A DNA stretch of 64,000 nucleotides. It comes from Thermodesulfobacteriota bacterium. Lineage in GTDB: Bacteria > Desulfobacterota > Desulfarculia > JACQYL01. Shown here one piece after another: positions 6,582 to 51,648 of this stretch. A program made the position numbers and the translations under genes. The number at the start of each line of letters is the position of its first letter. Within the stretch, counting starts at the first letter, position 1. The notes under the pieces were generated by a model. The model did no database searches. It saw nothing but the letters and a program-made list of their open reading frames with translations, and was not told the DNA's origin. The DNA is taken from assembly GCA_963675595.2 (NCBI GenBank), contig CAXXLZ010000002.1, forward strand, positions 864,001-928,000, in the 5' to 3' direction.

Positions 6582-6585
6582 GACC

Positions 6586-19559: not shown

Positions 19560-19722
19560 GTTTTGGGTTTTTTACCTTTTGGAAACCGGCCCGGCCTGTT
19601 CGGGTCAGGTTAAACCGGCATTTGGACTCGTCCATATATGGGATGCCCGTTTTCCATATATGTAGCATATATGCGGCAAGCCGCACGCACACGCGAACCC
19701 GAAAGACCTTATGGAGTTCGTC

Positions 19723-31900: not shown

Positions 31901-34041
31901 AAGATCTGGGCTGCCTGCAGCTAATCACCTCCACCAGCAATTTGGAGGAAGTGCGGAATCTCCTGGACGGCGCACTGGATCGCATGAGCCTTAGCCGAAG
32001 CCGCCGCAATGCGGAATTCCTTCTGGAGCATTTGAAAGCGCTCAGTGGCCGGCTGGCCATCCGACTCACCGGCCAGAAGGCTCCTACCGCCGAGCTCATC
32101 GCATTGGCAATGGCACATGCCAACTGTCTGCGGGCCGCCGAAGACGATATTTGCTGGGCGTCACTGCGGAATGGATTCTTTGTGCCCGTCGACGATATAC
32201 GCGATCTATTGCCGCCCGTCGCCGAGAAGGGAAATGATGCGGAACGCGCCGACTCAAATGGCGAAGACAACGCGTACGAAAGAGAAGCACGTCCGGACAT
32301 GATCTACATTTCGCTGATCCCGCGAAAAGGACTGCTGTTCCGATTCACGGAGGTGAAATACCGTCGTCACTTGCGCGCGGCTCGCACCCCCGATACCCTG
32401 CAAGGGATTCGTGAGCAGGTTGAATCACTGCGCCGCAGGTGGGAAGACTGGTTCGGCACAGACGATGTTTGTGCATCGTTCCGGGCCATCCGGCGGGCAA
32501 AACTTGCTCGTGTACTTCGGTTCTATGCCGACAAGGCAAGACGTCATGCGGATGACGAAAACGGAACCGGATTAACTTCAAAAATGCACGAGGCTCTGGT
32601 CGCCGAGATTTATCGGGTCATTGAGAAGGGTGGCGACTATTGCTTCGAAACGATTGCCCAACCTGACCGCGGCTGGGTGTTCTGTCCCGATTACGTCGGC
32701 AGCCGACCTCTGGAGATCACGCCAGACGGGTGGGATACTCGCATATTCATGTTTGGTCCTGATTCGGATTTCCGTCGTGGAGCCGCTCCGCTTACCAGCG
32801 AGCCTCGCGTACCGAATGGGCAGAACGAAACCGCTATAGAAACCACAGACGATTCAGAACCTGACACCTCAACGTCAGCCGGTGAAACAGCACCGAACGA
32901 TCGAGATGCCGAAGCAGTCTCATTAGCTGTAAATCAAAACGAGGACCAGGCTGAGGCGAGCCAATCGGAATATCGATCATCCTCTGATGCCATTCCTTCG
33001 GTGTGCCTCGGTACAAATCTCCATTCAGGAGCAGAGGTCCGATGGCCGTTAACAGTGCGAGGCAATCCGCATTTGCTTTTGGCTGGGTTGCCGGGGATGG
33101 GAAAGACAACGTGCCTTCTGAACCTCTGCCACCAGATGCTCAAGCTTCGTATCCACCCGATCGTTTTCTCTTACCATCAAGATATCGACGAGAAACTGCA
33201 GACAATGGTCGGCAACGTCCGTTTCATTAATTTCGACGGGCTGGGTTTCAATCCACTGCAAGTGATCGACCGTAGTTCAACAATGGCGTATCTCGATGTT
33301 GCCGGAGCGGTGCGTGATATCTTTGTCGCTATCTTCCCTGAGTTGGGAGACATTCAAGGGGAACGCATCCGCAAGGCGATTAAGGACAGTTTTATCGAGC
33401 TGGGCTGGGGCGATGGAGATCCAGCTCAGCTGGCGGAACCTAAATTCTCGCGGTGGGTGGAAATCCTGCGATCAGAGCCAAAGCCGGATCGTGGACTCAA
33501 GACGCTGCTGGCTCGGTTGGATGAACTTGAGGATTACGGTTTTTTCCGCACCACCGGTGATCAGGAGAGTCTCTGGGAAAGTGAGCAACCGGTTGTCCTG
33601 CGGATCCACTCCACACAGAACGACCAGCTGCAGAAGGCCTTCGCATCCACAGTCTTTTACGGGCTTTACAAGAACATGTTCCGACGAGGGGTGCAGGACC
33701 GCATTACGCATGCACTGATCTTTGACGAAGCCCATCGCGCCGCAGGACTGCAGTTGATTCCAACGATGGCCAAGGAGTGCCGAAAGTATGGGATCTCACT
33801 GGTGCTCGCGTCGCAGGAAGCTCGCGATTTTCATATCTCGCTGTTTTCCGCAATCGCCAACTACCTCGTCCTGCGGCTAACAGAATTAGACGCAAAGGCG
33901 ATGGCAAAGAACATCACCACGTCGGACCAGGAGCGCTTGCTGGTTGATCGAATAAAGCAAACCGGGCGTTTTCGGGCATTCTACTGCAGTGAAGGCCTAA
34001 CAAAACCGGTTCCAGTTGCCTTGTTGAACCTGAAGCTGTAA
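28930..34041 (+). CDS. DndH/DptH-like large protein with nuclease motif and C-terminal HerA-type ATPase (MADS Mad8-like)
   Basis: 1703 aa; RPDMIYI...FTEVK (PD-ExK); NPHLLLAGLPGMGKT, FDEAHR, KECRKYGISLVLASQ. Confidence 0.85.
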   Translation: MTLRTLHSILLARAFEKVLGRPDFGTMAFVRFLMPGVVESLAHTTDFAPEGWTVRRVADVDDEPSRTITADQAVEIRESKSDPIVLLVDTSRAGAGMDGIYSAAREIDEAGLYKEALRLAARQITNQQNKTAREFAERAVKKARGFGRRYSVSPWQEFDYYVRVVAEECHPGALLWLLGLWPVCVDDDDPYNADALDVARLFVDRLLGAATSGQAPSQRIESLRLLSPTDQQRIDLERFLHAAATRPLLTSLEDLAASRHLWVNELKLEGAAHVLQAIDLVPWRTRQNKLAKWSGLIEEAEGDPPVLILDPKADANGNYAKLEIRWTTRPDNLLRDAVQYQAKIITDMDEELASRDVLHSGKKEEKCRFTDDDFSMLSDDALINAKIVVSVIGDDAIDEQESDEFVIRFGTPPDKGTGGVGKIMRTFSEGLIELDDRDTVTALASATDSFPLDSKGFIVLRTPQRGKSFRVFRPPLLHEVEQDWSDRAGQIGRWRVKVRASGARAGIPEFVPIEPDGSSSGTAWHSIWERATTASRRMADRFHNCGGGVGQVYDQNAKVFDTVVKEYLLAWTALLDVADPVLALANTIEIQSLSGRTIGLIVLPAHTMRLAWHVGYDNLVLHTRYEQSVATKQLRDELKFLDGAVFPAFLPGLQPGKTFVFADTLGFHVVGMVSDDDSEPKAAIAILARALGESESADSAPTVGKQSAQILGNEILKYIECHDTSKLLHIHALRPGDGLTVARSLGHVQKRSRRVPTEDEADGEPQQTAPSFVLELYPSASQRGVAGRFIAEARERRRSGAGVVLEEDQWMLESTRLPGGMTLPRLRWARKDDPDPQSSAHLAVAFDTFESRVSSEALEGTASNRPFFAFGLMSFFERDYTSVPTPLWRSMVVGSTDGEKHPADRTHTERLVKLQQVVAKCVVRHLRENIGVPVLRTEIPQEKAYGLRELHRLCDWVITLDRNAGIEYFDSPRDNRDVYEAYVIDCVPEREDLGCLQLITSTSNLEEVRNLLDGALDRMSLSRSRRNAEFLLEHLKALSGRLAIRLTGQKAPTAELIALAMAHANCLRAAEDDICWASLRNGFFVPVDDIRDLLPPVAEKGNDAERADSNGEDNAYEREARPDMIYISLIPRKGLLFRFTEVKYRRHLRAARTPDTLQGIREQVESLRRRWEDWFGTDDVCASFRAIRRAKLARVLRFYADKARRHADDENGTGLTSKMHEALVAEIYRVIEKGGDYCFETIAQPDRGWVFCPDYVGSRPLEITPDGWDTRIFMFGPDSDFRRGAAPLTSEPRVPNGQNETAIETTDDSEPDTSTSAGETAPNDRDAEAVSLAVNQNEDQAEASQSEYRSSSDAIPSVCLGTNLHSGAEVRWPLTVRGNPHLLLAGLPGMGKTTCLLNLCHQMLKLRIHPIVFSYHQDIDEKLQTMVGNVRFINFDGLGFNPLQVIDRSSTMAYLDVAGAVRDIFVAIFPELGDIQGERIRKAIKDSFIELGWGDGDPAQLAEPKFSRWVEILRSEPKPDRGLKTLLARLDELEDYGFFRTTGDQESLWESEQPVVLRIHSTQNDQLQKAFASTVFYGLYKNMFRRGVQDRITHALIFDEAHRAAGLQLIPTMAKECRKYGISLVLASQEARDFHISLFSAIANYLVLRLTELDAKAMAKNITTSDQERLLVDRIKQTGRFRAFYCSEGLTKPVPVALLNLKL

Positions 34042-34528: not shown

Positions 34529-35215
34529 TCAGCCGAGAGCCCGGTCCAGTAGTGCCGCGGTCAAGGTCGGATCCCCGAAGATCTGCGTCCAGTCGCCGAA
34601 CCCGAGGTTCGTCGTGATGATTACGGGCTTCTTTTCATGCCGCTCGGCCAGAACTTGAAAAAGCAGCTCCGCCCCTTCCCTGGACAGGGGCACATACCCC
34701 AGTTCATCTACGATCAACAGACCGTAGGAAGCATATCGTTTCATGACCCGGCCCAGGACCTTTTCGTCCCGGGCTTCGATCAGTTCATTGGCCAAGGAAC
34801 AGCCGGTCAGGAATCGCGTTCGTACTCCTTGTCGGCAGGCGGCCATTCCCAGGGCCGTGGCCAGGTGGGTTTTCCCCGTGCCGCTCCGGCCCGGAAAGAT
34901 GACGTTTCGGGCCTCCCGGATGTATTGCCCTTCAAGCACTTCCCGGATTTGCCGCACATCTAGGTCAGGAGCCGCCTCGAACCGGAAGCTCTCCATGGGC
35001 TTGAGCAGCGGGAACCGGGCGTCGTGGATGCGGCGTTTGCAGCCGTTCTCCATTCGGGCCGCCACCTCAAGTTCACTCAGGCCGAGGAGGAACTCCGCGT
35101 AGTCCTCCTTGTTTTCCCGCACTTGGCGCAACTGCGTTTCCAGATGGGACAGGACGGCGGAGAGCTTCAGGATTTTCAGATTGGCCGTTAACTGGGCTTG
35201 AACGGCCGGTTTCAT
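34529..35215 (-). pseudogene. istB: IS21 helper ATPase IstB, C-terminally truncated
   Basis: GRSGTGKTHLA, IVDELGY, ITTNLGFGDW; ends abruptly after ALLDR. Confidence 0.85.
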
Positions 35216-35412
35216 GACTGTAAATGGAAAGTCAAATGGGGACCACCCGTGGCCATTAAAAAGGGAGCCACCAGGTTGTTAATGAAACGTCGGCCGTGCC
35301 TGGAAGAACGGAGAACCGATTCTCCGACTTACGAGCAGAGGAGCCTGTGCGAGAATGGGTGCCTACAGTCAACTCGTCGGAGCACAGGCTCTTCTGCGGG
35401 CCGGACGGTTTC

Positions 35413-36162
35413 TCACTTTCCCTTGCCGCTCATGCTTTCTCGGAAACGGTAACTCTCGCCGTTCATGGTCAGAATGCAGGCGTGATGAGTCAGTCGGTCC
35501 AGCAGGGCCCCGGTGAGTTGTTCACTGCCGAAGACTTGGGGCCATTGCGAGAAGTCCAAGTTTGTTGTCATGAGCAGGGATTGGCGTTCATAGCTTTCCG
35601 CCACAATCTGAAAGAACAGTTGGGCGCCCTTTTCCGAAAACGGCACATATCCGATTTCATCTACGATCAGAAGGTCCATTTTGGCCAGGGACCGTTCGCA
35701 GTGAGACAATCGGAGCGCGGCCTGGGCTTCGCTGAGCAGATTGATGAGACCGGCGGCCGTAAAGAATCGGACCTTCTTTCCTTGTTCGCAGGCCGTGAGC
35801 CCCAAGGCAATGGCCAAATGAGTCTTTCCTGTGCCCGAGTTGCCCATCAGGATCACGTTTTCTTTCCGCTCCATGTATTCTCCCTGGGTCAAGTCCAGCA
35901 CTTTGGTTTTATTCAGGGAGGGAATGGCCGAGAAATCGAACCGGTCCAAGCTCTTGTGCACGGGAAACCTGGCTGTCTTGAGACGGCGTTTGTAGGCGTT
36001 GTCTTCGCGATGCTGGACTTCGATTTCCATCAAAGCGAGCAGGAATGCCTCATAGGTTCGATTGGCCTGTACGGATTGACGGGACATTTCCTGATAATGC
36101 TGGAGGACAGCCGGGAGTCTGAGTCGTTTGAGATAGCTCTCCAGAAGCATTCGGATTTCCAT
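35413..36162 (-). CDS. istB: IS21 helper ATPase IstB
   Basis: GNSGTGKTHLA, VDEIGY, ALLDRLTHH, GESYRFRES. Confidence 0.95.
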   Translation of the reverse strand: MEIRMLLESYLKRLRLPAVLQHYQEMSRQSVQANRTYEAFLLALMEIEVQHREDNAYKRRLKTARFPVHKSLDRFDFSAIPSLNKTKVLDLTQGEYMERKENVILMGNSGTGKTHLAIALGLTACEQGKKVRFFTAAGLINLLSEAQAALRLSHCERSLAKMDLLIVDEIGYVPFSEKGAQLFFQIVAESYERQSLLMTTNLDFSQWPQVFGSEQLTGALLDRLTHHACILTMNGESYRFRESMSGKGK

Positions 36163-36174
36163 GGCATCCCCCTC

Positions 36175-37656
36175 CTACGGCCGCGTCAGCAGATCGAAGT
36201 GATCTACGCGGTTGGATCGGACAAGAGGGGAGGCCACATCGAGCGGACGCCATGGACGCGACGGAGCTTGTCGCTGGAACAACAGATTCTTTACCCCGTC
36301 GAAGCAGCCTATCCCAAGGGATAAAGCCTTCTCAACAGCCGCCGTCACCTCCGACTGTGCATGCTCTTTGAGCAGCATGAGGACCTGGATGTATTCCTTC
36401 GTGCCCCGGGACCCTTCATGCCGTTCCTTCAACATCTGGTGATAGCGCTCGTACACAGGAGGAAGGGGCCACTTGACAATCGCCGTGGCCCGATCAAATG
36501 CACCCGGCTTTCTCAGCAGCACCGGAAGATAATGGTGCGGGTCCAATATCTCGTCGTTATGGCCGTAGCTCCGCTCGTGCTCCGCGATGATCTTGTCCTT
36601 GCAGGCAATCTCCAGCTTGAATGCAAAGGCCCGAGTCGTCACTCTCTGACCCACGTATTCCGGCGGTACGGAATACCAGTTGCCGGCAAAGCGGATCCAT
36701 TGTCTTCGGTTAACCTTGGCCGATCCCGGCAAACAGGCTTCCGGCAGTCGTTCCGGCAACGGACGAAGGGAAGCCTCTTCCTCCTGCCAGACCTCTTGGA
36801 CCGTCTTGTCGAACCGTTTCCGAGTGCGGGCGTCTTGCTCACAGCGCTCTAGCAAGAAACGATTCAGTTCCGAAAAATCCCGCACCTGCGGCATGGGGAC
36901 CAGGAAGTTACGCCGCACATACCCCACCAGGTTCTCAACACTTCCTTTTTCTTGGGCTTCCCCTGCATTGCAGTACACCGCCTCGAATGGAAAATGCGAT
37001 CGGAACGAGACCCACAACTCTTGCTCTAACCGGCTTTTCCCTCTCGTGACTTTGGCCACCGCCGTCTTCATGTTATCGTATCGCATGCGACACGGAACGC
37101 CTCCAAGGTACTTGAATCCTCGGATATGGCTTTCAAATAGGGCTTCCTGCTTCTGGCTCGGCAACGCACAAACAAAAAACTTCGTGGAATAGTCCAGTCG
37201 CATGCATGCCAGATCTACTTCCTGCTCTCTACCACCCAGGATTACACGCGCCGTCCCAAAATCAAAAGTCCCTCCGTCTGCCGCTTCGTAAGTCTGCGGA
37301 ACATGGCTTTCCGGAATGCGGCCCCGCAATGAACGCACTTCCCGGCGCACGGTTCTATCTGTCCCTTCGTACCCGTATCCGTCCCGTAGTCTCTCATAAA
37401 TCCGTTTAGCTGTATGCCGCTGTTTCAACGGCCGTTTCTTGTCCTCCTCCATCCACTGCACGATCAGTTCTACGAACGGCCCAATCACTCTCTTCGGCCT
37501 TGGCTTTTCCAGCGTGTACACCGGAATCCCCGGATCATGAACCGCCTTCCGAACCGTCTTTCGGCTGTGCCCCATCTCCCGCGCTATCCGCCGCATCGAT
37601 TTCCGCTTCAGAAAATACTCCCTTCGTATCACATCCTTCTGGTCCACCGTCAGCAT
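36175..37656 (-). CDS. istA: IS21 transposase IstA
   Basis: N-terminal HTH (IAREMGHSRKTVRK), YDNMKTAV, EKGSVENLVGYVRRNF; start at MLTVDQ after GGAG. Confidence 0.93.
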   Translation of the reverse strand: MLTVDQKDVIRREYFLKRKSMRRIAREMGHSRKTVRKAVHDPGIPVYTLEKPRPKRVIGPFVELIVQWMEEDKKRPLKQRHTAKRIYERLRDGYGYEGTDRTVRREVRSLRGRIPESHVPQTYEAADGGTFDFGTARVILGGREQEVDLACMRLDYSTKFFVCALPSQKQEALFESHIRGFKYLGGVPCRMRYDNMKTAVAKVTRGKSRLEQELWVSFRSHFPFEAVYCNAGEAQEKGSVENLVGYVRRNFLVPMPQVRDFSELNRFLLERCEQDARTRKRFDKTVQEVWQEEEASLRPLPERLPEACLPGSAKVNRRQWIRFAGNWYSVPPEYVGQRVTTRAFAFKLEIACKDKIIAEHERSYGHNDEILDPHHYLPVLLRKPGAFDRATAIVKWPLPPVYERYHQMLKERHEGSRGTKEYIQVLMLLKEHAQSEVTAAVEKALSLGIGCFDGVKNLLFQRQAPSRPWRPLDVASPLVRSNRVDHFDLLTRP

Positions 37657-37780
37657 CTCCTCTACCCCCTGGCCTTTGGCTCTCATCTAAATAGCCTATC
37701 GGCCGAGGGGCCTCTACGGTGGTCCCCTTTTCGATGTCCACTACTTACTCAAATGGCCCCCTTTTAAATGTCCATACACA

Positions 37781-38770
37781 CATGACAGCGCTCCGATCCG
37801 CGAGTACACGGAAACATCCGGCGGTGAAAACGTCGGCCACGCGTCAAGGGAGGCGGGCCGGGAGGCGTGATCTTTGCCTTCGGACATGATCAGAAGGTGT
37901 TCCACCGCCTCCCGTGAACTCACTCCGGCCCCCACGGCCGCTTCCACGGCATTGAACACGTCCCTTTCCTCATGTTCCCGGAAGAGCATCAATACACCGA
38001 TGAAGTCTTTGATCCCGCGGTTTTCGCCCTGAGCTTCACAAAATCGTTCCAGGAGTCTTTCCAGGGAGGGAGGCCAAGCGGCCCTCCATTGGCGGATCGG
38101 CCGGGCGTCGGCGAATGCTTGGGGACGACGATGCAGCAACTCCAGGTAATGCATGGGATCGAGCTGCCATTTGTTGTTCCCGTAATGCCGAGGATGCACG
38201 GCGATCCTTCGGCCTCCGTAGAAAACCTCCACCCGGTCCACGTACAACATCACGCGAGTCATGAGACCGACGAAGCGAGGCGGCGCCGAATAACGGTTCT
38301 TCTCGACGATCACCGTGGAGTACTTGTCCACCTTACCGGAAGCAACCTCCACATTGGTGAAGGGAATCTCCGGGAGCGGTATCAGATGTCCTGTCTCCTC
38401 CTCGAAAAGCTCTTTGACGGTCTCTTCCCGACCCGTGATGCGGTGGTCGCCGTAAGCGGCGCATTCCGCAAGGAGCTGCGCGTTGAGTTCCTCCAGGCTC
38501 GCCACCTCCGGCATGGGCACCAGAAAATTCCGTCGAGCATAGCCTACGAGTCCTTCCACTCCTCCCTTCTCATGCGCCTGGCCGCGATTGCAGAATCGGG
38601 GCACAAAGCCGTAGTATGCCCGAAATCGCTCGAAGCTTTCCTGAAGCTTGCGTTTCTTGCCTTTGAACACCTTCTCCACCGCGGTGGTCAGGTTGTCGTA
38701 GATCAACCGTCGGAAGACCCCTCCGTAGAAGGCGAAGGCTTCCATGTGTCCTTCAAACAGCGCCTGTTGG
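37781..38770 (-). pseudogene. istA: 5'-truncated IstA of the outer IS21
   Basis: YDNLTTAV, EKGGVEGLVGYARRNF. Removing the inner IS restores an ATGA stop/start overlap with istB at 35215. Confidence 0.85.
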
Positions 38771-39407: not shown

Positions 39408-39702
39408 CCAGACCCTCTCACCCGCGCTGGCCCGAGGCCGGACGAATAACCACCAAGCCCGCCGCGGCAAGTAGGTCTTCGGATTCGAAAGCGGCGGCGG
39501 CGCTTCTCCTCGGACTGTGCAAATGGTTTAGGGCTGATCCGATGAGATATTGACGGCGCGTGATCATATCTTTTGTTTGCACAATACGCCAAAAGGAAGT
39601 TTCCGCTGAACAATGGCTTCACCCTGAGCCCTGAGATCATCCGTCCAACGTGTCTGCATGGTGCACTCGGTTTAAGGCTTGGGCTGCCGATTCGCATCAG
39701 AG

Positions 39703-40122
39703 TCACAAATAATGAAACAACCCCCGGTCCTTCTTCTCCTGCATCGCGCCTTTGCGCTCTCTGGCCGACGCCGCAATGCCGGCGAGCTTCTCCAATGACT
39801 TCCCGAATCTGCTCGAAAAGACCCACCCCTCGCGATAACCGTGCCGTTTGTTGAAACGGGAGACATGATCAATGAGCCCCATACGCCGCATTTTGCTTCG
39901 GACGGTTTCGAGGATTCTCGGTGAGAAATCGTATTTGTCGCACAACGGCTGAAGAGTGTTCAAGAATTCATGTTCAGCGTACTTGAGTTCGATGAAGATT
40001 GCGAGAAAAACTCGCTGATGATTTCTATTGCCGGGAAATAGAATGGCCGCGAGTTCGTCCAGGTCCCGAGTCCTCGCGATCTTGTTATGGCTGAGTTCGA
40101 TTTTTGTGTTGACGATTGCGCA
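39703..40122 (-). CDS. Hypothetical winged-helix-like protein; start anomalous (open frame extends 53 codons upstream of the tracked ORF)
   Basis: Frame reads CAIVNTKIELSHNKIARTRDLDELAAILFPGNRNHQRVFLAIFIELKYAEHEFLNTLQPL...; the nearest ATG is one base out of frame. Confidence 0.6.
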   Translation of the reverse strand, partial: CAIVNTKIELSHNKIARTRDLDELAAILFPGNRNHQRVFLAIFIELKYAEHEFLNTLQPLCDKYDFSPRILETVRSKMRRMGLIDHVSRFNKRHGYREGWVFSSRFGKSLEKLAGIAASARERKGAMQEKKDRGLFHYL

Positions 40123-40494
40123 TCACCTCGACCGGGCCAAGTGCCGGAGAACGACCGGCTTACCGTAACCATTCTCTTTCAGGGCTTTCTTCCTCAGTTC
40201 GACTCGTTGTGTTGCGATCTCAAGAGCCATCGTCCTGAGTTCTGTCCCCAATAGGCTCTCCACCCAATAGATGGTGGTGTATGCAGAAACGTAGATATCT
40301 CCGAGCAGTCTCTGAAATCTCCACCTGATTCCCTGGCGCGTTAATCCAAAAATCCGTTCGATCTTGTCGCCGTAATTTCTGCGCAAAACGAAACGCTTCA
40401 GGCCGTCCTCCTTCAGCTCAATCCTGAGCTCTCTGTCATCGATCAACATCTTGAGCTTTTCAATAAATTCCTTGTCCTTTTCAGTCAGTTTCAT
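40123..40494 (-). CDS. Hypothetical HTH-like protein
   Basis: IERIFGLTRQGIRWRF HTH-like segment; overlaps the upstream gene. Confidence 0.65.
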   Translation of the reverse strand: MKLTEKDKEFIEKLKMLIDDRELRIELKEDGLKRFVLRRNYGDKIERIFGLTRQGIRWRFQRLLGDIYVSAYTTIYWVESLLGTELRTMALEIATQRVELRKKALKENGYGKPVVLRHLARSR

Positions 40495-41293
40495 TGTAGG
40501 GCGGCTCGATTTCGATATCCGAGCCGTATTGGGTAACCTGCACTTCGCAATCCTGAAGCAGAAAAATCAGAGCGACAAATCGCATCGCACGATCTCTTCG
40601 GGCATCATTGATCAGGGGATCAATCCTGGAAAACATGATTTGTCGATACATGTGAACCGAATCCAGGATATGGTGTCTGTACCGGGACAGCCCCGGAAGA
40701 TTCCCAGTCAGTGAAAACTCCTCACCCCAAACTCCCGCCCCAAAGCCGATGAAGCCCGACAATGCTTCAGTAAAGCCAGGCAAACGATCAACCTGAGGTT
40801 CCTCCAGTAACGTCAACCCGCGCGACCGCTCTTCTCGACGGGCGAGCCTCATCACCTCTCTTCGCCTTCTTGCCTTGGCTCTGGACTCGGCCATTCGTTG
40901 CCGGAAATAGGCTCGGTCGAAGACCCGTTCATCGAACAAGAACCGGGACGGCACGGTCTTCCCACAAGAAGCGCACGCATAATGAAAACTCCGCCTGACC
41001 AGCTTTGCTTCGCAACAGCCGCTCCTTTGAAACACCACTGCGGGGTCGAGTTCATGGCCGCTCAGACAAATGGCCAGACCTGCCTCCAGCATCCGAAGTT
41101 TTTGACCGCATAGATGACACGCAAAGCCGGAAAGCATGACATCGAAGTAGTAGCAACGGGCCTCCGCCTTCAATTGGACGACAGCCGCAACAAACAAAGC
41201 GACCGTCCTGCCGAAGCTTTCCTCTGGCTCCGGAGGAACAGGAACCGGCATCCAATTGTCGCTGCAATGTCCTGGAAGACTTTCGATTTCCAT
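40481..41293 (-). CDS. Zn-finger protein with ScpA-like C-terminal winged-helix motif
   Basis: CHLC, C..GH, CC and CASC motifs; ends FVALIFLLQDCEVQVTQYGSDIEI. Start placed at ATG 41293, 30 nt below a TATA-like box. Confidence 0.65.
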   Translation of the reverse strand: MEIESLPGHCSDNWMPVPVPPEPEESFGRTVALFVAAVVQLKAEARCYYFDVMLSGFACHLCGQKLRMLEAGLAICLSGHELDPAVVFQRSGCCEAKLVRRSFHYACASCGKTVPSRFLFDERVFDRAYFRQRMAESRAKARRRREVMRLARREERSRGLTLLEEPQVDRLPGFTEALSGFIGFGAGVWGEEFSLTGNLPGLSRYRHHILDSVHMYRQIMFSRIDPLINDARRDRAMRFVALIFLLQDCEVQVTQYGSDIEIEPPYNETD

Positions 41294-41315
41294 CCATGAA
41301 AGAAACCAAGACCGG

Positions 41316-41364
41316 CATATAAACCTTTCTTTCAAAACCCGCAGAGGAAAGAAAAGTTTATATA
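41316..41364. promoter_or_regulatory. Back-to-back BRE/TATA-like motifs: GAAAGAAAGGTTTATATG (-) and GAAAGAAAAGTTTATATA (+)
   Basis: 18-nt inverted pair (16/18 identical) facing the divergent genes starting at 41293 (-) and 41399 (+). Confidence 0.6.
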
Positions 41365-41398
41365 CACCAGGGCCTTACCAAGTCCCGAGGTGATACCG

Positions 41399-41542
41399 AT
41401 GCCAAGACCCTATAAATGCCCGTACTGCGGCGCAACTCAAAGCCACTGGAAAGGATACAGGCCCCTTGTCCAGGGAAAAGTCAGACTCCGGATGTGCACC
41501 AAGTGCCACCGGAAGTTCACGACTCGGGTTAAGATCGAATAA
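41399..41542 (+). CDS. 47-aa Zn-ribbon protein missing from the ORF track (MPRPYKCPYCGATQSHWKGYRPLVQGKVRLRMCTKCHRKFTTRVKIE)
   Basis: CPYC...CTKC; RBS GAGGTGA; translated by hand. Confidence 0.75.
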   Translation: MPRPYKCPYCGATQSHWKGYRPLVQGKVRLRMCTKCHRKFTTRVKIE

Positions 41543-41557
41543 CCACTGGACGGAACT

Positions 41558-42826
41558 TCAATGAAGACCGCCGAACGGCCCGGCCCCGAATCCTTCCCTC
41601 GTCAGGAATCGGTTGAGGGTTTCCTTGGGAAGCGACCTCGAGATTTCTCTTGTCTGGCCGTATCTGCCGCGTGATATCAGCCTGGCGTTGATCAGGCCAT
41701 AAAGGTCCAGGGAACCAATGATGTCCGAGAACCTCCGTTGCGTCAGCGGCCTGACCCGTTCCAACTCGCAGAAATTGGCGTATCGATCATAGGCCTCGCC
41801 TGTAGTGACCCGTTTCGAAGTCTTGGCCAACAGATCGTAGCAGGAAAGAAGCGCAAGTTTTTGCTGCGGAGCGAGAGCCCGAACCATCTCCTCGGTCTTG
41901 TCCATCTCCAATCTGTGCTCAGCCAAATCCACGATTTCTTCGGACAGCCTGCCGCCGGTTTCCTGTGCCACCTTGGCCGACTTTGATAGAAGTTCCACCG
42001 CCTTTCTCGCATCACCGGTTTCCCGCGACGCCAATGCCGCGATCTTTCGGACAGCAGCCACGTCCACCTTTGACTTGTCCAATGCCTTTTCCACTCGAAG
42101 ATTCAGAATTTCTATCAAATCCAAGGCGTTATAAGGTTCAAAGAGCATGTCCGTTTTCTTGAGAACGCTCAGAATCCGAGGGTCCAGCATCTTGTCCCAG
42201 TTCAGTTTGTTCGTAACCATGATGAGAACCAACCGGCAGGGAATCTTTCTCGGAAGGGTTTTCCCAAGGAAGGTAATAAACTCGTCCGCATTGGGCTTGA
42301 TATTATCCGCCTCATCAATGAGAAGGCACAAGAAACCCTGGAACCGGTTCAGCTCTTCGATGATCCGTTCCTGCATCTGATCGATGGGAATGCCTTTCCT
42401 GTAGGTGCGAATCGAATCATTGAGGGCTCTCGCAAGCTCGTTCAACGCTCCGAAAGAAGACCTGGGCGAGGTCAAGTCCACGTATCTGTACTGAAACCCG
42501 ACAGACTGGGTTCGACAGTATTCCTGAAACGTCGAAAGCACGTGAATGAGGGAAACCGTTTTCCCTGAACCCGTAGGCCCGAAGACCAGCAAAGAACTCG
42601 GATGATCGCCGTCCAGGATCGGAGTCAGATGACAGACGATGCGTTTCAGCTGCTCCTCCCGGATATTTCGATCAAAAATCTCTTTCAGAACAGAAGTCCG
42701 CTCTTCCTCAGGCAACTTCTCGTCGTCGAGATAGTTGGGGTTCAGAATAAGACGATGATTCTTCTGCGAGTCATGCAATGAGCGGATGAATTGCAAGGAA
42801 GCTTCGGAATGATCTCCACCGGACAT
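41558..42826 (-). CDS. cdc6: Orc1/Cdc6-family replication initiator (AAA+ and C-terminal winged helix)
   Basis: REEQLKRI, LLVFGPTGSGKT, LIDEADNI, LDPRILS, FEPYNALDLIEILNLR, GDARKAVELL, TTGEAYDRY..FC, LTQRRFSDII..LDLYGLINA...SRGRYGQTREI. Confidence 0.92.
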   Translation of the reverse strand: MSGGDHSEASLQFIRSLHDSQKNHRLILNPNYLDDEKLPEEERTSVLKEIFDRNIREEQLKRIVCHLTPILDGDHPSSLLVFGPTGSGKTVSLIHVLSTFQEYCRTQSVGFQYRYVDLTSPRSSFGALNELARALNDSIRTYRKGIPIDQMQERIIEELNRFQGFLCLLIDEADNIKPNADEFITFLGKTLPRKIPCRLVLIMVTNKLNWDKMLDPRILSVLKKTDMLFEPYNALDLIEILNLRVEKALDKSKVDVAAVRKIAALASRETGDARKAVELLSKSAKVAQETGGRLSEEIVDLAEHRLEMDKTEEMVRALAPQQKLALLSCYDLLAKTSKRVTTGEAYDRYANFCELERVRPLTQRRFSDIIGSLDLYGLINARLISRGRYGQTREISRSLPKETLNRFLTREGFGAGPFGGLH

Positions 42827-42853
42827 TTTCAAACGATTCTTCTACAGGACATC

Positions 42854-42869
42854 TATAAATAGTTTTCGG
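42854..42869 (-). promoter_or_regulatory. BRE/TATA-like motif CCGAAAACTATTTATA upstream of cdc6
   Basis: Identical to 15631-15646; TTTATA starts 33 nt before ATG 42826. Confidence 0.55.
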
Positions 42870-42920
42870 TCCAGAATCCTGTCGTCACCTGACAGTTAAC
42901 CGGATGTTAAGTGTGGGAAA

Positions 42921-43275
42921 GTTTCTAGTGGAACTTTAAGTTTCAGTTTTTAGTGATGTTTTCTTTTCCTTATTATTATTTATTTCTATATAGAAACTAT
43001 ATAATATAATATCAAAGCCGCGAAAATATAGAAAAGTTTTTAAATGCGAATACTTCAGAATAGTAACAAGAAACAAAAATAACACACCCAACAAAAGGTT
43101 TTCAAGTTTTCCACGCGACATTTACACACACTCAAAATGATGATTTTGGACTACTATTGAGTGACAACGTGGAGGCCATGACGTCTCTCAAAGACCTCGA
43201 TCACCGACGGTATTTCAAGAAAACCCGAAACAATCGGCCATTCGACAGTACAAGAGCAACCTTTCCACCGGAAAT
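42921..43275. other. Putative archaeal-type replication origin: AT-rich unwinding element flanked by ORB-like boxes
   Basis: GTTTCTAGTGGAAC (42921-42934), palindrome TTTCTATATAGAAA (42983-42996), TTTCCACCGGAAAT (43262-43275); very AT-rich 42935-43145; directly upstream of cdc6. Confidence 0.6.
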
Positions 43276-43343
43276 TTACTCGGGTTCCCGAAGCCGGTTG
43301 ACGTCAATCCATCCATTCCTCCGAGCAAATTCCCGAAACCAAC

Positions 43344-43847
43344 CTACATCTCATCCCAGTCGATATACTGAGCCGGACTTTCTCCGACCCTTTCGACGAT
43401 CTTGGGATATTTTTCTCCAGGAGCCGCCTCTCCGATCCTAATCACCCGGATTTCGTGCCACCAATCGTCACCGAAATCGAACCAGTAGAAAAAGTAATCG
43501 CCCTCTTTCAGGTTCAGAGAGCCGATTTTGGTTTTTGAAACGTCGCCTGCCGGCGGAGGAGTTCCCAACGGATATTCCTTCATTTCGGTGGACAGCACAT
43601 ATCTCGCCGCCTCGGGATCCCGCGGTATTTTGGAGAGCTGAAACTCGTAAAGATGCTCGTCTTCACGATCGAAGGCTCTGAAGATCGCCCGGTGAAGCTG
43701 CTCCAGGGTATGCTTTCCCCTGATTTGAATGACTCGGGATACCGCCGGGTTCTTTGCGATGAAGGTCTTGCTCATGGGTCCGTTTGCAATCGAGACCTTC
43801 AAAGTGTGCAGATTCCTCGCCCGCTTTCCTCCGGAACTCGCCGCCAT
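43344..43847 (-). CDS. pRiA4b ORF-3-like family protein
   Basis: SRVIQIRG..TLEQLHRAIFRAF..EDEHLYEF and FFYWFDFGDDWWHEIRV. Confidence 0.85.
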   Translation of the reverse strand: MAASSGGKRARNLHTLKVSIANGPMSKTFIAKNPAVSRVIQIRGKHTLEQLHRAIFRAFDREDEHLYEFQLSKIPRDPEAARYVLSTEMKEYPLGTPPPAGDVSKTKIGSLNLKEGDYFFYWFDFGDDWWHEIRVIRIGEAAPGEKYPKIVERVGESPAQYIDWDEM

Positions 43848-47064: not shown

Positions 47065-47937
47065 TCAATCCATAACGATCTTTCGCCGCGGCTGGTTCAT
47101 TAGTTCCCTCACTTGGTCATTCACGGAAGTCATCGCTTCGCGAATCCGGTTCTTGAGGTAACCGCTTTCACGAATGGACTCAGGCGACCTTCCGTCGAGC
47201 ACCGATTCCGCCTGCTCCACGAGTTCAGCCAACCCATTGTCGTCGAACACGTTTCGTTGCTTGAAGTGTTCGAAGAACTCATAGAAATTCGTCACCGTCG
47301 ATCCTTTGAACTTCTTTGCTTCACCGTCCGGCCCGAGACCGAATCGCTCGCAGATATGCCCCACAAGATCGGCGAACTCCTCCCGAAGACACTGCACCGC
47401 AAGCTCCCTGGCCTCTTCCATGGTTTGGATGAACTTCAGTTTCTCTCGCTCATACACTTCCGGCGCCAATAGACCGAACCTGCCGTTGGGGACATCAAGA
47501 GCTACAAACCGCCACTCAAACGAAAACCGCCTATGAATATCCACGGGGTAGTCCTGCTCATTGAACAGGTCACCGAGATAGGCAATGGCCGAGTCCCTGA
47601 GCGCCGGATACCGTGAGGCAAAATCGTTTACGAGGTAACCGAACTCAGATTGAAGCTCCCGCAACTTCTCGTCCACCTCGGTGATCAAGTCTTTCGGCAC
47701 GAACATCATGCCGTGGATGGGAAAGGGCAGACTGACCGATGTGAGGTAGAGCCGGGAATTACCGGCCAACTTTGCAATGGGTTTCAGGCTTTCCGGATCC
47801 ACGAGCTTTTTTGTTGCATGGAGCCATTCGTGGTTCGTGGTCATTTGAGCGAGTTTTCCCTGCTCGATCTTTCTTCTCGCTCCCCACATGCTGATGGAGA
47901 GTTGCACCAGGCATCCTTTTTCGAAGATGTTTTCCAT
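47065..47937 (-). CDS. DUF3150-like mobile-element protein
   Basis: LVQLSISMWGARRK, KKLVDPESLKPI, SLPFPIHGMMFVP; usual neighbour of the AAA/DUF1257/DUF2997 module. Confidence 0.6.
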   Translation of the reverse strand: MENIFEKGCLVQLSISMWGARRKIEQGKLAQMTTNHEWLHATKKLVDPESLKPIAKLAGNSRLYLTSVSLPFPIHGMMFVPKDLITEVDEKLRELQSEFGYLVNDFASRYPALRDSAIAYLGDLFNEQDYPVDIHRRFSFEWRFVALDVPNGRFGLLAPEVYEREKLKFIQTMEEARELAVQCLREEFADLVGHICERFGLGPDGEAKKFKGSTVTNFYEFFEHFKQRNVFDDNGLAELVEQAESVLDGRSPESIRESGYLKNRIREAMTSVNDQVRELMNQPRRKIVMD

Positions 47938-48029
47938 CGCCGTCTCCTTTCAGAAAAAAGAAAACCCCGATCTCCGAGTAACGGAAACCGGGGCATGCGT
48001 TGATTCGTGGTTGCAGTGTCGCGGAAGGT

Positions 48030-48230
48030 TCAGCCGCAAAGCGGCAGATACTTCTTCACCGCTTCTTTCTCCTCCTCGTAGTACGCTGGAGTCAGGCTTT
48101 GGGCGGTTTCTCTTCCAAGCAAATCCTTCAGGAATTTCGATTCCTCGATACAAGCCTTGCCCTTGAACCCTCTGGTTTCGAGCTTGATCTCGCCATCCAT
48201 GGACACTTCCACAATGATTTCCTTCATCAC
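48030..48230 (-). CDS. DUF2997-family protein
   Basis: IIVEVSMDGEIKLETRGFKGKACIEESKFLKDLLG. Confidence 0.8.
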   Translation of the reverse strand: MMKEIIVEVSMDGEIKLETRGFKGKACIEESKFLKDLLGRETAQSLTPAYYEEEKEAVKKYLPLCG

Positions 48231-48236
48231 AGCCTC

Positions 48237-48608
48237 CTACATCCGGACGTGGAGCCGGATTGCATTTTCGGTTTTCTTTTCGATCACCGTGTAGCCTTTA
48301 CGCCGAGCTTCGATCCGGGTCTTCTCCACCGCATAGGCCTGCTTCAACAGTCCTCCGTTTACGCCGATTGCTTTTTCCACGTTAGGGTCGTAGAAGTCGC
48401 ACTGAAGTTCATACCTGTCATCCATCCTCTGAACGCCGATTTCATAATCCGCACCGGGCAATCGAATGGCATGCTCGCACGCTGCGTTGTTTCCGTACCA
48501 CCGGAACTCTTTCCTGCCTTCGAGGAAAATCAGACCCAGCCGATTACACGCAGACTTCAGGACAGCGAGGTCCTTTACTTCGAGTTCGATTTTGACGATA
48601 TGACTCAT
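48237..48608 (-). CDS. DUF1257 (Ycf35-like) protein
   Basis: MSHIVKIELEVKDLAVLKSACNRLG...YEIGV...LKQAYA. Confidence 0.8.
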   Translation of the reverse strand: MSHIVKIELEVKDLAVLKSACNRLGLIFLEGRKEFRWYGNNAACEHAIRLPGADYEIGVQRMDDRYELQCDFYDPNVEKAIGVNGGLLKQAYAVEKTRIEARRKGYTVIEKKTENAIRLHVRM

Positions 48609-49087
48609 CGTATCCTCCGAATCGTTCTGATGGGTTCTTCGTCGCTTCGGCTCGCTCTCCTCGCCCGAGTCTCAGCCCAATCCCGGAGCGCTGAGAGCTG
48701 CTCCTTCATGGTTTTGGAAAGTGGCACAATGGTTTCACGGGCGTTTTCCAGGCCGTCAAAGAGCGAATCCTTGGCCAGCTGCTCGATCTCAGCGCCTGTC
48801 CATTCAGTGAGTTCAGCTGCATACTCGGAGGGTATTTCCGAACCGTACCGTTGATTCATGATCTCGATGATGGTTTCGCGCTCGTTTTTGTTCGGGATAT
48901 CCACAAAGAACAGGGCATCGAATCTTCCCGATCGCAGAAACTCGGGCGGAAGCCCCGAGATATCATTGGCGGTTGCCATGACCAGAATCGGACTGGTAGT
49001 CTCTTGAAGCCACAAGAGCAGATGCCCGAACATGGACGAGGTGGTACCCCCGTCCGTCATCCCCGAACTTTTGACTCCGGACAGCAC
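48605..49087 (-). CDS. Ycf46-like AAA+ ATPase, exon 2
   Basis: VLSGVKSSGMTDGGTT, VMATANDISGLPPEFLRSGRFD, WTGAEIEQ; joins exon 1 in frame. Confidence 0.9.
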   Translation of the reverse strand: MLSGVKSSGMTDGGTTSSMFGHLLLWLQETTSPILVMATANDISGLPPEFLRSGRFDALFFVDIPNKNERETIIEIMNQRYGSEIPSEYAAELTEWTGAEIEQLAKDSLFDGLENARETIVPLSKTMKEQLSALRDWAETRARRASRSDEEPIRTIRRIR

Positions 49088-51648
49088 GTAGGGTAGGCAG
49101 CGGCCCTCCTGCAGAAGCAGGCTAAGCCGCCACCCCCCTCCGAACCGTACGTGCGGCTTTCACCGCATACGGCTCTCTACTTACACTTACCTGGAAATCT
49201 CAGGTCAGGCAGAGTCCCGTCATGGAGTTGCCGATGGCAGTGAACGCACAAGACCAGGGTTTTCCGATTGCGTTCACGCATCAGCTCTTTCCATGGTTCG
49301 TTGCCATCAGCAACGGCACTCATACTCCCGGCGTGGTGCACCTCAAAGTAGCCGCCTGCACGCCCGCAGAACTCGCATTTCTGAGCCCTCAAACGAGAAA
49401 GGATATCAGAGTACGTGGCCCGATACTTCTTTGTATTGGGTACACTGTCGAGATTCTGCAACAGGGAAGAGCGGTAAAATTTGAGGTCCTTCAACCTGAA
49501 GAGCCGAGTGGTGCGTAATTTCCCATGGTACCATTCGGTAATAGCGTATTCCCCCGGTTCAACCTTCAGACGCCTCCTCACTGTTCTCTTGCTGCAGCGG
49601 TGTTTTCGGGCAAATGTTCTCGTCAAACTTCGGAACCAGACGGACTGCAGTTTCTGCAATGCCCGAACTGCCCCTTGAGCGAGAACATAGTAATTGGCAA
49701 AGCCCCTCAACTCCGCGTTGTAAATCGTGAGGATTTGTGTATCCATTAGGTTGACCAAGTTAAGTCGGGGCATGACTTCAAAGTTCTCATAGTTGCCATA
49801 TCCGTTCTTCTTGCAGAACGCCGCCATCTTATCGCTTGGGACTTTAAGCTGGATTCGACCAGCCCCAAGCCTCCTGGTCGTGTAGGTCCCGCCAAGTTTT
49901 ACCTTGACCGATTTTCCCACCGGGTAGGTTGTGATGTCATACCCGAGGAAGCGCGTTTCCTCAGTACAATGACGGAGGCCTGATTTCTCTTCGGAGATCT
50001 GCAGGCGCAAATGTTCTTGGACAAAACCACGAACAGTCTGCATGACCTGCCTGCAATCCTCCTTGGAGCCGATCATGCCGATGAGAAAATCATCGGCGTA
50101 CCGGATATACATCAGTCTCTTGTAACCTTCGTCATGGAAATCCAAGGAAGGGACTAAACGTCGCATCCTGCAATGTTCCCGAAGTTCGGCTTCTATTTCT
50201 TTGAGCTTTTCGGTCTCCCCAGCCTGCTGAGCCCGGGCGAACCTTATCCTTTGACGACGGACCAGATACTGATAGCGGAGATACTCTTCGTTCCGGCGTC
50301 TTCGCTTTCCCTTGTTGAATTCCTGAACCAGACTTTCCATGAACTCGTCGAGCTCATGAAGGTAAATATTGGCTAGGATCGGGGAAATAATTCCACCTTG
50401 AGGAGTTCCACTATACGTGGCATGGTATTTCCAATCATCAATATAGCCGGCCTTAAGCATGGCCTTGATGAGATTGATGAAACGCCTGTCGTCAATCCGT
50501 TTCTCCAACAGTCTTATCAACACCTTATGGTCGATATTGTCGAAGAAACCCCGGATATCCATGTCGATGATCCACTTAACGCCGGTCCAGTATTTCTGAA
50601 GATACCGCAAAGCGGTATGACACGATCTTTCCGGACGAAATCCATGCGAGCGATCAGAAAAGATCGGCTCGTAGATTCGTTCCAGAATCGCTCGTGTCAC
50701 TTCCTGGATCAGCTTGTCATCTCCGGAAGGTATGCCCAAGGGTCGCAACTTACCGTTGGCCTTGGGGATGTAAACGCGTTTTGATGGTTTGAACTTGTAA
50801 CGACCGTCTTTGAGCAGCTTAATAATGTTCTTTGCCCGCTCATCGGAAAAGCCGTCCAGGGTCACGCCGTCCACGCCCTTCGTCATAGCACCTTTGTTTG
50901 AATAGATATTGGCGTAGGCGTCTTCCCATAAAGTCGGGTTTTCCATGAGCCGAAATAGGCCGTTAACACGTTTCCCCTGCTTGGAGAGTTTTCCAAGAGC
51001 GTTCAACCTCTTGATGGTCGTAGCGGACAGCATCAGCACATCCTCCTTTCAGAGTGTTGAACACGTTGCATAAGCTGTCTTCCTTCCCCCGGATAGAGGA
51101 CCCTTCGTCGATGTCGCCACCGACTTATAGCCATATCCGTATCCCGCAATTGCGAGATCTGCAGAACCCATTACAGGCCCACCTTGGGTACTATGAAGAC
51201 TCCGTCGCCATACAGGTCCGAGCCGTGTGCTCGTGACCAGCTTAGGCGATCCCGCATTTACGCCAGATCAAAGATTCGCCGTGGTTAGGTCTCCCGTTCG
51301 TCCCTTTTATCCTTCTCGTCGAAGGCATGCCGGACAGACGGAATATGCAGGTCGAAAAGTGGGCCTACATACAGTCCGGACTGGCGTTTCAGCTACTTTC
51401 ACCAGTGCCCGAGCTACGGCCATGAGGACTGGGGTTCAAGCAGTTTAGCCTTGACCATACACGGCTTACGCTGACATCATCGTTGGTCGTAGCTACCTTC
51501 TTTGATGCCTTTTCCCAACATGCTGCACTCCCCCCTCCCTTTCGGGACAAGGACCATTGCTGGTCAGAGATAAGTTGGGTGCGTACAGGATATTTCCGTA
51601 ATCTTGGTGACTTCCGTCACACTCCTATCTGGCGCCAATACGGCGCAC
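49088..51648 (-). mobile_element. Group II intron inserted in phase 0 in the AAA ATPase gene
   Basis: 5' GTGCG at 51648; domain V GAGCCGTATGCGGTGAAAGCCGCACGTACGGTTC (49142-49175); domain VI ending CCCTAC at 49088; splicing gives DELEK|VLSGVKSSG. Confidence 0.95.
49177..51039 (-). CDS. ltrA: Group II intron reverse transcriptase/maturase with HNH endonuclease
   Basis: RPLGIP, HGFRP, GTPQGGIISPILANIYLHELD, YIRYADD, domain X, CEFC...EVHH...LCVHCH. Confidence 0.96.
   Translation of the reverse strand: MLMLSATTIKRLNALGKLSKQGKRVNGLFRLMENPTLWEDAYANIYSNKGAMTKGVDGVTLDGFSDERAKNIIKLLKDGRYKFKPSKRVYIPKANGKLRPLGIPSGDDKLIQEVTRAILERIYEPIFSDRSHGFRPERSCHTALRYLQKYWTGVKWIIDMDIRGFFDNIDHKVLIRLLEKRIDDRRFINLIKAMLKAGYIDDWKYHATYSGTPQGGIISPILANIYLHELDEFMESLVQEFNKGKRRRRNEEYLRYQYLVRRQRIRFARAQQAGETEKLKEIEAELREHCRMRRLVPSLDFHDEGYKRLMYIRYADDFLIGMIGSKEDCRQVMQTVRGFVQEHLRLQISEEKSGLRHCTEETRFLGYDITTYPVGKSVKVKLGGTYTTRRLGAGRIQLKVPSDKMAAFCKKNGYGNYENFEVMPRLNLVNLMDTQILTIYNAELRGFANYYVLAQGAVRALQKLQSVWFRSLTRTFARKHRCSKRTVRRRLKVEPGEYAITEWYHGKLRTTRLFRLKDLKFYRSSLLQNLDSVPNTKKYRATYSDILSRLRAQKCEFCGRAGGYFEVHHAGSMSAVADGNEPWKELMRERNRKTLVLCVHCHRQLHDGTLPDLRFPGKCK

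Follow-up and report, generated by a model that had tools for sequence, protein, structure and literature searches.

The window described here is a stretch of 64,000 nucleotides (C2:864001–928000) from a Thermodesulfobacteriota genome of 6.79 Mb, assembled in 3 contigs and 98% complete. It carries a gene, here called orc, for an initiator protein of the Orc1/Cdc6 type, preceded by a region that resembles an archaeal replication origin. In the textbook division, replication is initiated by DnaA and DnaB in bacteria and by Orc1 and MCM in archaea and eukaryotes. The present genome has DnaA-type genes at C2:1988135 and C2:3059530. The upstream region consists of an AT-rich tract and a set of short sites similar to archaeal origin recognition boxes (ORBs):

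41558–42832, minus strand: orc1/cdc6-type initiator gene, an open reading frame (ORF) of 424 aa; the ATG at 42826 (MSGGDH) is the likely true start
42813–42830, minus strand: start-codon ORB-like box, 25.6 bits, overlapping the orc start codon and oriented as the distal box
42917–42934, plus strand: proximal ORB-like box, 19.8 bits, in inverted orientation to the distal box and lying between the AT-rich tract and the gene
42935–43107, no strand: AT-rich tract, candidate DNA-unwinding element (DUE), 76% AT, with a palindrome at its centre (42983–42996)
43108–43125, minus strand: distal ORB-like box, 21.0 bits, on the far side of the tract
43262–43279, minus strand: fourth ORB-like box, 28.0 bits, the top score of the window and a shared top score genome-wide

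The Orc protein and its upstream region

By its motifs and architecture, the protein is a true member of the Orc1/Cdc6 family. All seven motifs from which the initial annotation had recognised the family are present in the 424-residue frame, and the profile searches it proposed agree: Pfam models match the AAA+ base (AAA_22, 7e-13, residues 77–207), the lid (Cdc6_lid, 2e-11, 241–300) and the C-terminal winged helix (Cdc6_C, 1.8e-24, 316–405), which makes up the full three-domain architecture with no effector domain. The NCBIfam model TIGR02928 (orc1/cdc6 family replication initiation protein) is passed with 252.9 bits against a cut-off of 181.3; the score stays below the NCBIfam equivalog models made for particular types of archaeal ORC1 (245.5 vs 501). 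Among proteins of solved structure, Orc is matched best by two ORB-binding Orc1-1 proteins, Cdc6-1 of S. solfataricus (2qby_A, 2.7e-51) and ORC1 of A. pernix (2v1u_A, 6.6e-51), to both of which it aligns over residues 58–410/415 with an almost identical winged-helix wing. Matches to Cdc6-3 (1.4e-31) and to the 1fnn type (5e-20) are much weaker. Thirty relatives show no variation at residues K91, D173/E174, N208, R219, R276 and G389-R390-Y391-G392, which line up with the motifs of the archaeal proteins; we take them to be Walker A and B, sensor 1, the arginine finger, sensor 2 and the wing.

The genome contains four orc genes, on two contigs of 1.8 and 4.7 Mb, whose proteins are 98% identical. 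The differences between them are mostly silent, and since dS (synonymous divergence) is 0.22–0.31 with a dN/dS (ratio of non-synonymous to synonymous divergence) of 0.007–0.042, the copies are diverged lineages, each with its protein under strong purifying selection.

The AT-rich tract upstream of orc was rightly pointed out by the initial annotation. At its peak (42947–43046) it reaches 81% AT, which makes this the richest 100 bp of a window that averages 45.8% AT, and only 14 places in the 6.8-Mb genome have at least 80% AT per 100 bp; the four orc copies, each with its upstream tract, account for four of these 14. Both boxes named by the initial annotation are found exactly, at 42921–42934 within the proximal box and at 43262–43275 within the fourth. 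The far-side flank of the tract, however, is formed by the 43108 box and not by the one at 43262, which lies 135 bp beyond it.

The boxes were scored with a matrix built from 34 boxes at 11 loci of other genomes, including no sequence from the genome itself; these training boxes were picked by a loose pattern and by position classes after all regions had been viewed, and the matrix is not independent of the author's eye. In the 128 kb scanned for the window, the four best matches all fall within 467 bp (42813–43279). Thirty shuffles of the window gave mean top-four scores of 13.5, 11.3, 10.1 and 9.2, with a highest single score of 18.9. Genome-wide (6.8 Mb), the nine best matches all lie at the four orc loci. 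The bare dyad TTCCNNNGGAA on its own is not significant, with 6 matches vs 2.58 expected, and at least 6 were reached in 4 of 100 shuffles. All four genomic copies keep the proximal box, in which the central dinucleotide varies, and relatives keep it too; the 43262 box is kept in three of the four. A scan of 39500–43500 for sigma-70 promoters was uninformative (3 sites vs 3.1 expected).

One of the four modules is interrupted. In the tRNA-Arg island on C2, an insertion sequence (IS) of 1.55 kb (C2:1653244–1654798) sits inside the AT-rich tract, which explains why the upstream alignment of that copy breaks off. The distal and proximal boxes are thereby driven apart, and the box at C2:1653084, one of the nine best matches in the genome, is cut off from its orc. 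The same element is present in a dozen near-identical copies in the genome.

The layout in relatives, and its descent

Relatives of the Orc protein fall into two large subfamilies, here called famA (55–64% identical to Orc) and famB (about 42%, range 40–45%, from Thermodesulfobacteriota and Syntrophales). In all 11 famA loci compared, which are also those used for the matrix, the same order is found: a distal box in gene orientation, an AT-rich tract, an inverted proximal box, and a start-codon box at −25 to +8 of the orc start. The distance between distal and proximal boxes is 100–190 bp, the AT content peaks at 0.8–0.9 in the same relative place, and the tracts often have palindrome-like centres as judged by eye.

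For famB, 52 metagenome loci were fetched, and the 32 with enough upstream DNA were scanned with the famA matrix; they include near-duplicates, and the counts overstate their independence. The full set was found in 22 of the 32, with a distal box between −180 and −225, AT content peaking at 0.8–0.9, an inverted proximal box near −70 and a start box at +2 to +8. By the author's count of the remainder, one locus has a full set displaced by about 2 kb, five have two boxes, and four are without the expected arrangement; a start-codon box is present in 25 of the 32. Matches above 13 bits number 79 inside −450 to +20, vs 22 in the rest of the 155 kb. Since the layout persists in these relatives, the boxes and the tract are conserved among bacterial homologs, in 11 of 11 famA loci and in most of the famB loci scanned.

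Several of the famB matches outside this interval form a second cluster just downstream of orc. At L111, L112, L113 and L115, two or three boxes of famA flavour lie at around +1260 to +1570, counted from the start of the famB orc, and these loci may hold two origin modules back to back.

The comparison with archaea was made directly on archaeal orc1 loci rather than on a printed ORB consensus. At L046, the core orc1 locus of a Thermococcaceae metagenome-assembled genome (MAG), the same box core stands on both sides of an AT-rich stretch and is repeated nearby, with a G-run after one of the boxes. When the bacterial matrix was run on 20 core orc1 loci from the phylum of this MAG, it gave 27 matches in 80 kb, distributed over 13 of the 20 loci, vs 2 in shuffles; 20 Thermoproteota loci gave 6 vs 1 in shuffles. 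No box was found in three short archaeal plasmid loci, and no clear boxes in L028 and L029, which are archaeal orc1 copies not linked to an origin. Beside the dyad, the extension is C-rich in the bacterial boxes and G-rich on the same strand in L046, again by eye. Reviews describe the archaeal origin as an AT-rich element with inverted repeats by the initiator gene (PMC4010727; PMC5333045). The comparison supports the view, already put forward in the initial annotation, that the region upstream of orc has the anatomy of an archaeal origin, with an AT-rich element between inverted ORB-like boxes adjoining the initiator gene; relatives have kept the arrangement, and its box core is common to archaeal orc1 loci.

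Close homologs of Orc number 465 at E of at most 1e-10 among the candidates scored. Those with a named organism are bacterial in four of four cases (Thermodesulfobacteriota, strain NaphS2) and in three of three from a follow-up search that brought out famB, and the NaphS2 protein is already annotated as an orc1/cdc6 family replication initiation protein. Ten of the 12 genome loci found are bacterial, including two Hydrogenedentota MAGs, and relatives are present in the complete chromosomes of Desulfosarcina variabilis (9.6 Mb) and of a Desulfatiglandales MAG (8.2 Mb). The gene is sporadic: it occurs in 3 of 41 genomes of relatives, the present one included, and in 3 of 401 genomes sampled from the phylum, which yielded in addition one unrelated match of 29%. 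Five genomes have one copy, two have two and two have four.

Archaeal Orc1 proteins are 27–34% identical to the bacterial ones, and none above about 34% was found among those searched. A tree of 166 rows (IQ-TREE, LG+G4, quick search, SH-aLRT support; unrooted but for a chosen outgroup) places Orc inside the Orc1/Cdc6 clade, as the initial annotation would have it. The famA clade (98) and the famB clade (94), together with five intermediate rows, make up a clade of 33 rows (99), 4 of which are unlabelled. Its successive sisters are unlabelled representatives, and the entire assemblage groups with Orc1 from Thermoproteota and the core Orc1 from the phylum of the Thermococcaceae MAG. The three Orc proteins from archaeal plasmids belong to another clade. 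When six of the sister representatives were made into a profile, it led to DPANN proteins named "ORC1-type DNA replication protein" in 13 of 13 organism-named rows among the 120 matches listed.

In this tree, bacterial Orc is one deep clade within archaeal Orc1 diversity and splits into two or more subfamilies that share about 40% identity. This fits a single old capture from archaea followed by long diversification in bacterial mobile elements. The initial annotation had offered two origins for the gene, and one of them, an undescribed family of bacterial mobile elements, fits these data. The other, a recent gift from a methanogen partner, is not supported, given identities of at most about 34% to the archaeal proteins searched and the depth of the bacterial clade.

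In a literature search of limited coverage, supplements excluded, no description of bacterial Orc1/Cdc6 elements, of their origin-like region or of their companion genes was found, and PMC3914693 and PMC8195603 held nothing on bacterial Orc1. One paper mentions transfers by which bacteria acquired archaeal replisome genes "in limited cases", with the detail in its supplement. The gene family as such is annotated in databases; here a putative replicator of the Orc1/ORB kind occurs in bacteria without MCM, carried by an integrative element.

Companion genes and islands

Four small genes lie downstream of orc:

41390–41542, plus strand: zinc-ribbon ORF of 50 aa between orc and d1 (Pfam Zn_ribbon_NrdR, 27.6 bits vs a cut-off of 27.2)
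40481–41335, minus strand: d1, 284 aa, with Cys/His clusters (zinc-ribbon-like) and a C-terminal winged-helix-like domain
40123–40494, minus strand: d2, 123 aa, conserved, 57–64% identical in relatives of both Orc subfamilies
39703–40116, minus strand: d3, about 137 aa, conserved, without an ATG, GTG or TTG start

None of d1, d2 and d3 has a family match in Pfam, NCBIfam or PADLOC. The zinc-ribbon ORF is 64–73% identical in relatives, in the same place and on the same strand. In d1, residues C73, C76, C90, C107, C108, H118, C121 and C124 are invariant in the alignment. Its structure model is mediocre, with a predicted local distance difference test (pLDDT) of 64, and the best fold matches of its C-terminal domain are the C-terminal winged helices of kleisins (Scc1-C, ScpA), which are weak (E 0.03, target-normalised TM-score 0.68–0.78). 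The pNOB8 centromere-binding proteins come lower down the same list, and the lead in the ESM Atlas is ScpA (0.79). For d3, the structure model is too poor to use (pLDDT 55.8); it forms a cluster of its own in the ESM Atlas, with 487 members of 137 aa, and tblastn with the L018 homolog covers residues 1–137 in frame. Since an Ile codon stands at the start position in all four genomic copies, where relatives have Met, a non-canonical start codon is suggested.

The initial annotation had raised the question of whether the three downstream genes travel with orc, and they are kept with it in loci of both subfamilies. The zinc ribbon and d1–d3 accompany orc in famA loci; among the 52 famB loci, many of which are on contigs too short to show them, d1 was found in 19, d2 in 16, the zinc ribbon in 9 and d3 in 8. 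Between the subfamilies, d2 and d3 are about 60–70% identical, compared with about 42% for Orc.

The whole module belongs to an integrated island. The left end of the window holds the tail of clpX and then lon (Pfam scan), followed by a tRNA gene and an integrase, in line with the bacterial flank and tRNA integration noted in the initial annotation. Further features of the island in the window are:

3994–4069, plus strand: tRNA-Val(TAC), found by ARAGORN; its last bases, at least 45 (4025–4069), are the left attachment repeat
4155–5318, minus strand: tyrosine integrase (Pfam Phage_integrase, 2.5e-20), in a region common to the three other island copies
57818–57835, minus strand: isolated ORB-like site, 19.1 bits, fifth-best in the window, inside the backbone PD-(D/E)XK nuclease gene

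The 45-bp 3' end of tRNA-Val occurs once more, at C2:998373, 130 kb downstream, and the window from base 4025 on therefore lies inside an integrated island of 130 kb. Each of the other orc copies likewise has its own island and its own integrase at a different tRNA, flanked by intact direct repeats in which 45 bp or more of the tRNA end recur:

Island 1: tRNA-Val, 130 kb
Island 2: tRNA-Arg on C1, 92 kb
Island 3: tRNA-Arg on C2, 93 kb, with an additional repeat beyond
Island 4: tRNA-Phe, 76 kb

The four islands (76–130 kb) have a backbone in common and differ in their cargo. The backbone comprises the integrase region, window 15–17.2 kb, window 39.7–63.2 kb and the last 850 bp, and orc belongs to it rather than to the variable cargo. 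Other backbone genes encode PRiA4_ORF3, a LuxR-type response regulator, DUF3150, DUF2997, DUF1257, an AAA ATPase, RadC, and a HerA-like ATPase with the PD-(D/E)XK nuclease; HerA/FtsK-like ATPases are present in the island. The isolated site at 57818 scores 19.1 bits in two other island copies too, which makes three copies in all. In nine relatives' loci, no tRNA was found within 4–8 kb of orc, which carries little weight because the islands are large.

VirB4 (PF03135) and the VirD4-type coupling protein (PF02534) have no match anywhere in the genome. Replic_Relax (PF13814), the sole relaxase family searched, has none either, and its control matched nowhere. Nine backbone or unknown proteins found no match in PHROG, the island being annotated up to window base 64000. 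By the features tested, the island is neither a recognisable integrative and conjugative element (ICE) nor a recognisable prophage. Among the X1–X4 contigs placed on window 1–12000, the unitigs break at the attachment repeat. One X1 contig continues past base 4069 with sequence equal to that of the genome just after the right-hand repeat; it may be a right-junction contig that matches the 45-bp repeat, and is not taken to indicate excision or an empty site.

Several other observations were made along the island. A DUF3150 gene followed by a DUF2997–DUF1257–AAA ATPase trio forms a conserved part of the backbone at 47065–49087. The backbone AAA ATPase gene appears to be split (48605–49087 and 51625–52572, window 48605–52572), and between its halves is a 620-aa ORF (49177–51039) that by eye resembles a group II intron reverse transcriptase/maturase. 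The cargo at 10959–14765 and 19711–21849 encodes a 1268-aa TPR-CHAT protein and a protein with caspase, PEGA, FGE-sulfatase domains, and three very large ORFs are found at 22971–34041. At 34529–38745 are nested IS21-type elements, a complete IstA/IstB pair interrupting an IstB-like ATPase gene and a truncated IstA-like gene; this reading comes from ORF translations and from matches of a DnaA model to the IstB-like genes. The outer element has four copies, 95% identical, elsewhere in the genome. A whole-genome ARAGORN run found tRNA-Pyl (C2:125847) and tRNA-Sec (C1:971408).

A putative replication module and its alternatives

On balance, it is probable that the stretch is the replication module of large integrative elements in Thermodesulfobacteriota and some Hydrogenedentota, and that it is used when the island is excised. 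The module would consist of the Orc1/Cdc6-type initiator gene and an adjacent origin, made of two inverted ORB-like boxes around an AT-rich element of about 170 bp, with further boxes. The tyrosine integrase would excise the island at the tRNA repeats. ATP-bound Orc would then bind the boxes through its winged helix and the initiator-specific motif of its AAA+ domain, as archaeal Orc1-1 does on ORB, and would mark and distort the AT-rich element, which would open and allow a replicative helicase to be recruited. The helicase is probably that of the host, for example DnaB, since the genome is without MCM; the zinc-ribbon protein, d1, d2 and d3 may serve as adaptors. From its position we infer that the start-codon box is an autoregulatory site, through which Orc would repress its own gene. 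A more far-reaching proposal, which we hold tentatively and would not yet expect to be right, is that a deep lineage of bacterial elements replicates from an ORB/DUE origin with an Orc1-type initiator that has been adapted to loading a helicase of bacterial type, be it DnaB or one not yet recognised, perhaps by way of the companions.

A number of results weigh against replication from this site. The absence of MCM from the window, remarked on in the initial annotation, extends to the whole genome: the best match to PF00493 is 35.6 bits over part of the model, a weak generic AAA+ match at the level of all 14 control genomes, bacteria among them. In Bacillus prophages, MCM genes of the BcMCM type occur. 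HerA/FtsK-like ATPases aside, no helicase, primase or polymerase family was found among the scanned window proteins or in the 8-kb flanks of two relatives. No free relative of the element was seen: the 417 matches to Orc in PLSDB are all less than 60% identical, those listed being archaeal, with no free plasmid relative; phage records gave only two matches, at 23% identity; and IMG/VR gave none to the Orc family. The cumulative GC skew declines evenly between about 37 and 64 kb and does not change direction at 43 kb, and the genes on both sides of the AT-rich tract are on the minus strand. Contig depth, a weak measure that does not equal copy number, shows no excess for island cargo, at 16.6 (X1) and 11.8 (X2) compared with 17.6–21.9 (X1) and 9.6–15.3 (X2) for most flank contigs. 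In the copy whose AT-rich tract is split by the IS, orc is still intact and under purifying selection, a hint that Orc may have some importance independent of that origin. A review also describes Orc1 paralogues of archaea whose roles are non-replicative (PMC5333045).

The strongest alternative, although a rather unlikely one, is that Orc regulates the island as a DNA-binding protein, site-specific and switched by ATP, which would control, for example, excision or backbone operons, and that the boxes are its operators. The selection on orc beside the split tract, the lack of a helicase partner and of a free replicon, and the archaeal paralogues just mentioned all lend themselves to it, as do the box over Orc's own start codon in nearly all relatives and the conserved extra site inside a backbone gene at 57818. 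However, operators need no 80–90% AT tract of conserved size between inverted boxes, and this geometry persists at about 42% Orc identity. The layout agrees with that of archaeal origins as outlined in the reviews (PMC4010727, PMC5333045), and autoregulation by an initiator fits an origin equally well.

It is improbable that the module is a partition or DNA-organising system, in which Orc would mark a centromere-like site and a kleisin-like d1, with d2 and d3, would organise or segregate the element. This idea draws on the likeness of the d1 C-terminal domain to kleisin winged helices, on the pNOB8 proteins further down its list and on the ScpA lead, as well as on the better conservation of d2 and d3 than of Orc between the subfamilies. 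Winged helices are generic folds, however, and the matches are weak and come from a mediocre model; no SMC or ParA was found among the scanned backbone proteins, and the AT-rich tract would be left unexplained.

Very improbable is a role of Orc in defence or conflict, in which it would be a sensor related to ORC/Cdc6, of STAND-like type, and part of the island cargo. The island does have cargo of a conflict type (the TPR-CHAT and caspase-domain proteins), and the flank of one relative has SIR2 and HerA, but Orc has the full Orc1 architecture without an effector, its PADLOC matches are marginal P-loop matches alone (best E 1.3e-4), and the gene sits in the conserved backbone with cognate conserved sites beside it. 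The last alternative, an archaeal contig misjoined to bacterial DNA or contamination, which the initial annotation had named among the cases that would undo its reading, has nothing in its favour and is excluded for practical purposes, because four copies on contigs of 1.8 and 4.7 Mb each lie at a different bacterial tRNA with direct repeats, because relatives are found in the complete D. variabilis and Desulfatiglandales chromosomes and in NaphS2, and because all organism-named close homologs are bacterial, with no archaeal sequence more than about 34% identical.

What makes the replication module of interest is that a complete Orc1-type initiator and a cognate ORB-like origin are found under strong selection in bacteria without MCM, in at least two subfamilies and two phyla. 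If the more far-reaching proposal is right, it would be a natural hybrid of two initiation systems that are supposed to be incompatible, and a third class of bacterial replication initiator besides DnaA and plasmid Rep. If the origin fires, it would show a handover from an Orc-type protein to a bacterial replisome and offer a tractable system for the role of Orc1 at an origin; if it does not, it would be a clear example of origin recognition turned to a different use. The module could also serve as a replicon for the genetics of Desulfobacterota. There is a practical side as well: some pipelines treat TIGR02928 as a marker of archaea, among them a misassembly screen (bioRxiv 10.64898/2026.05.20.726742), and bacterial orc genes would trip such screens.

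Parts of this arrangement are known from other systems. With ICEs and their actinomycete counterparts (AICEs), the islands share integration at a tRNA, a tyrosine integrase, ATPases of the HerA/FtsK type and a rep module, which here is a candidate one. Replication of ICEs and AICEs follows their excision, and AICEs combine int, rep and an FtsK-like translocase. Here, in contrast, VirB4, a VirD4-type coupling protein and Replic_Relax have no match in the genome, and the initiator is of the archaeal type.

Orc1/Cdc6 proteins of archaeal mobile elements, such as haloarchaeal and methanogen plasmids, the Natrinema virus SNJ2 and integrated elements of thaumarchaea, are similar in being the (annotated) replication protein of a mobile element (PMC6563490). 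Their hosts, however, are archaea with MCM, the identity is 23–32%, the plasmid Orc proteins belong to another clade, and the three short plasmid loci have no box.

A close parallel in sequence and layout is the archaeal oriC1 with Orc1-1 (Sulfolobus, Aeropyrum, Pyrococcus/Thermococcus). The proteins belong to the same family, with 2qby_A and 2v1u_A as the closest structures; the initiator gene adjoins the origin, with an AT-rich element between inverted repeats (as outlined in PMC4010727 and PMC5333045); and the box core is that found around Thermococcaceae orc1. The host here, in contrast, is a bacterium with DnaA and without MCM, and the module lies in a tRNA-integrated island instead of at a chromosomal origin. 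By eye, the sequence beside the dyad is C-rich rather than G-rich as in L046, and the module adds a start-codon box and companions (the zinc ribbon and d1–d3) without a recognised archaeal counterpart.

Iteron-type Rep proteins, such as RepA of pPS10 and its relatives, resemble the proposed module: a winged-helix initiator, repeats beside an AT-rich region and a bacterial replisome. Rep recruits DnaB. A relation of the Rep WH1 domain to the winged helix of Orc/Cdc6 has been proposed (bioRxiv 10.1101/2024.09.03.610885). Rep is, however, without the AAA+ ATPase and the lid, whereas the protein described here has the whole Orc1 architecture.

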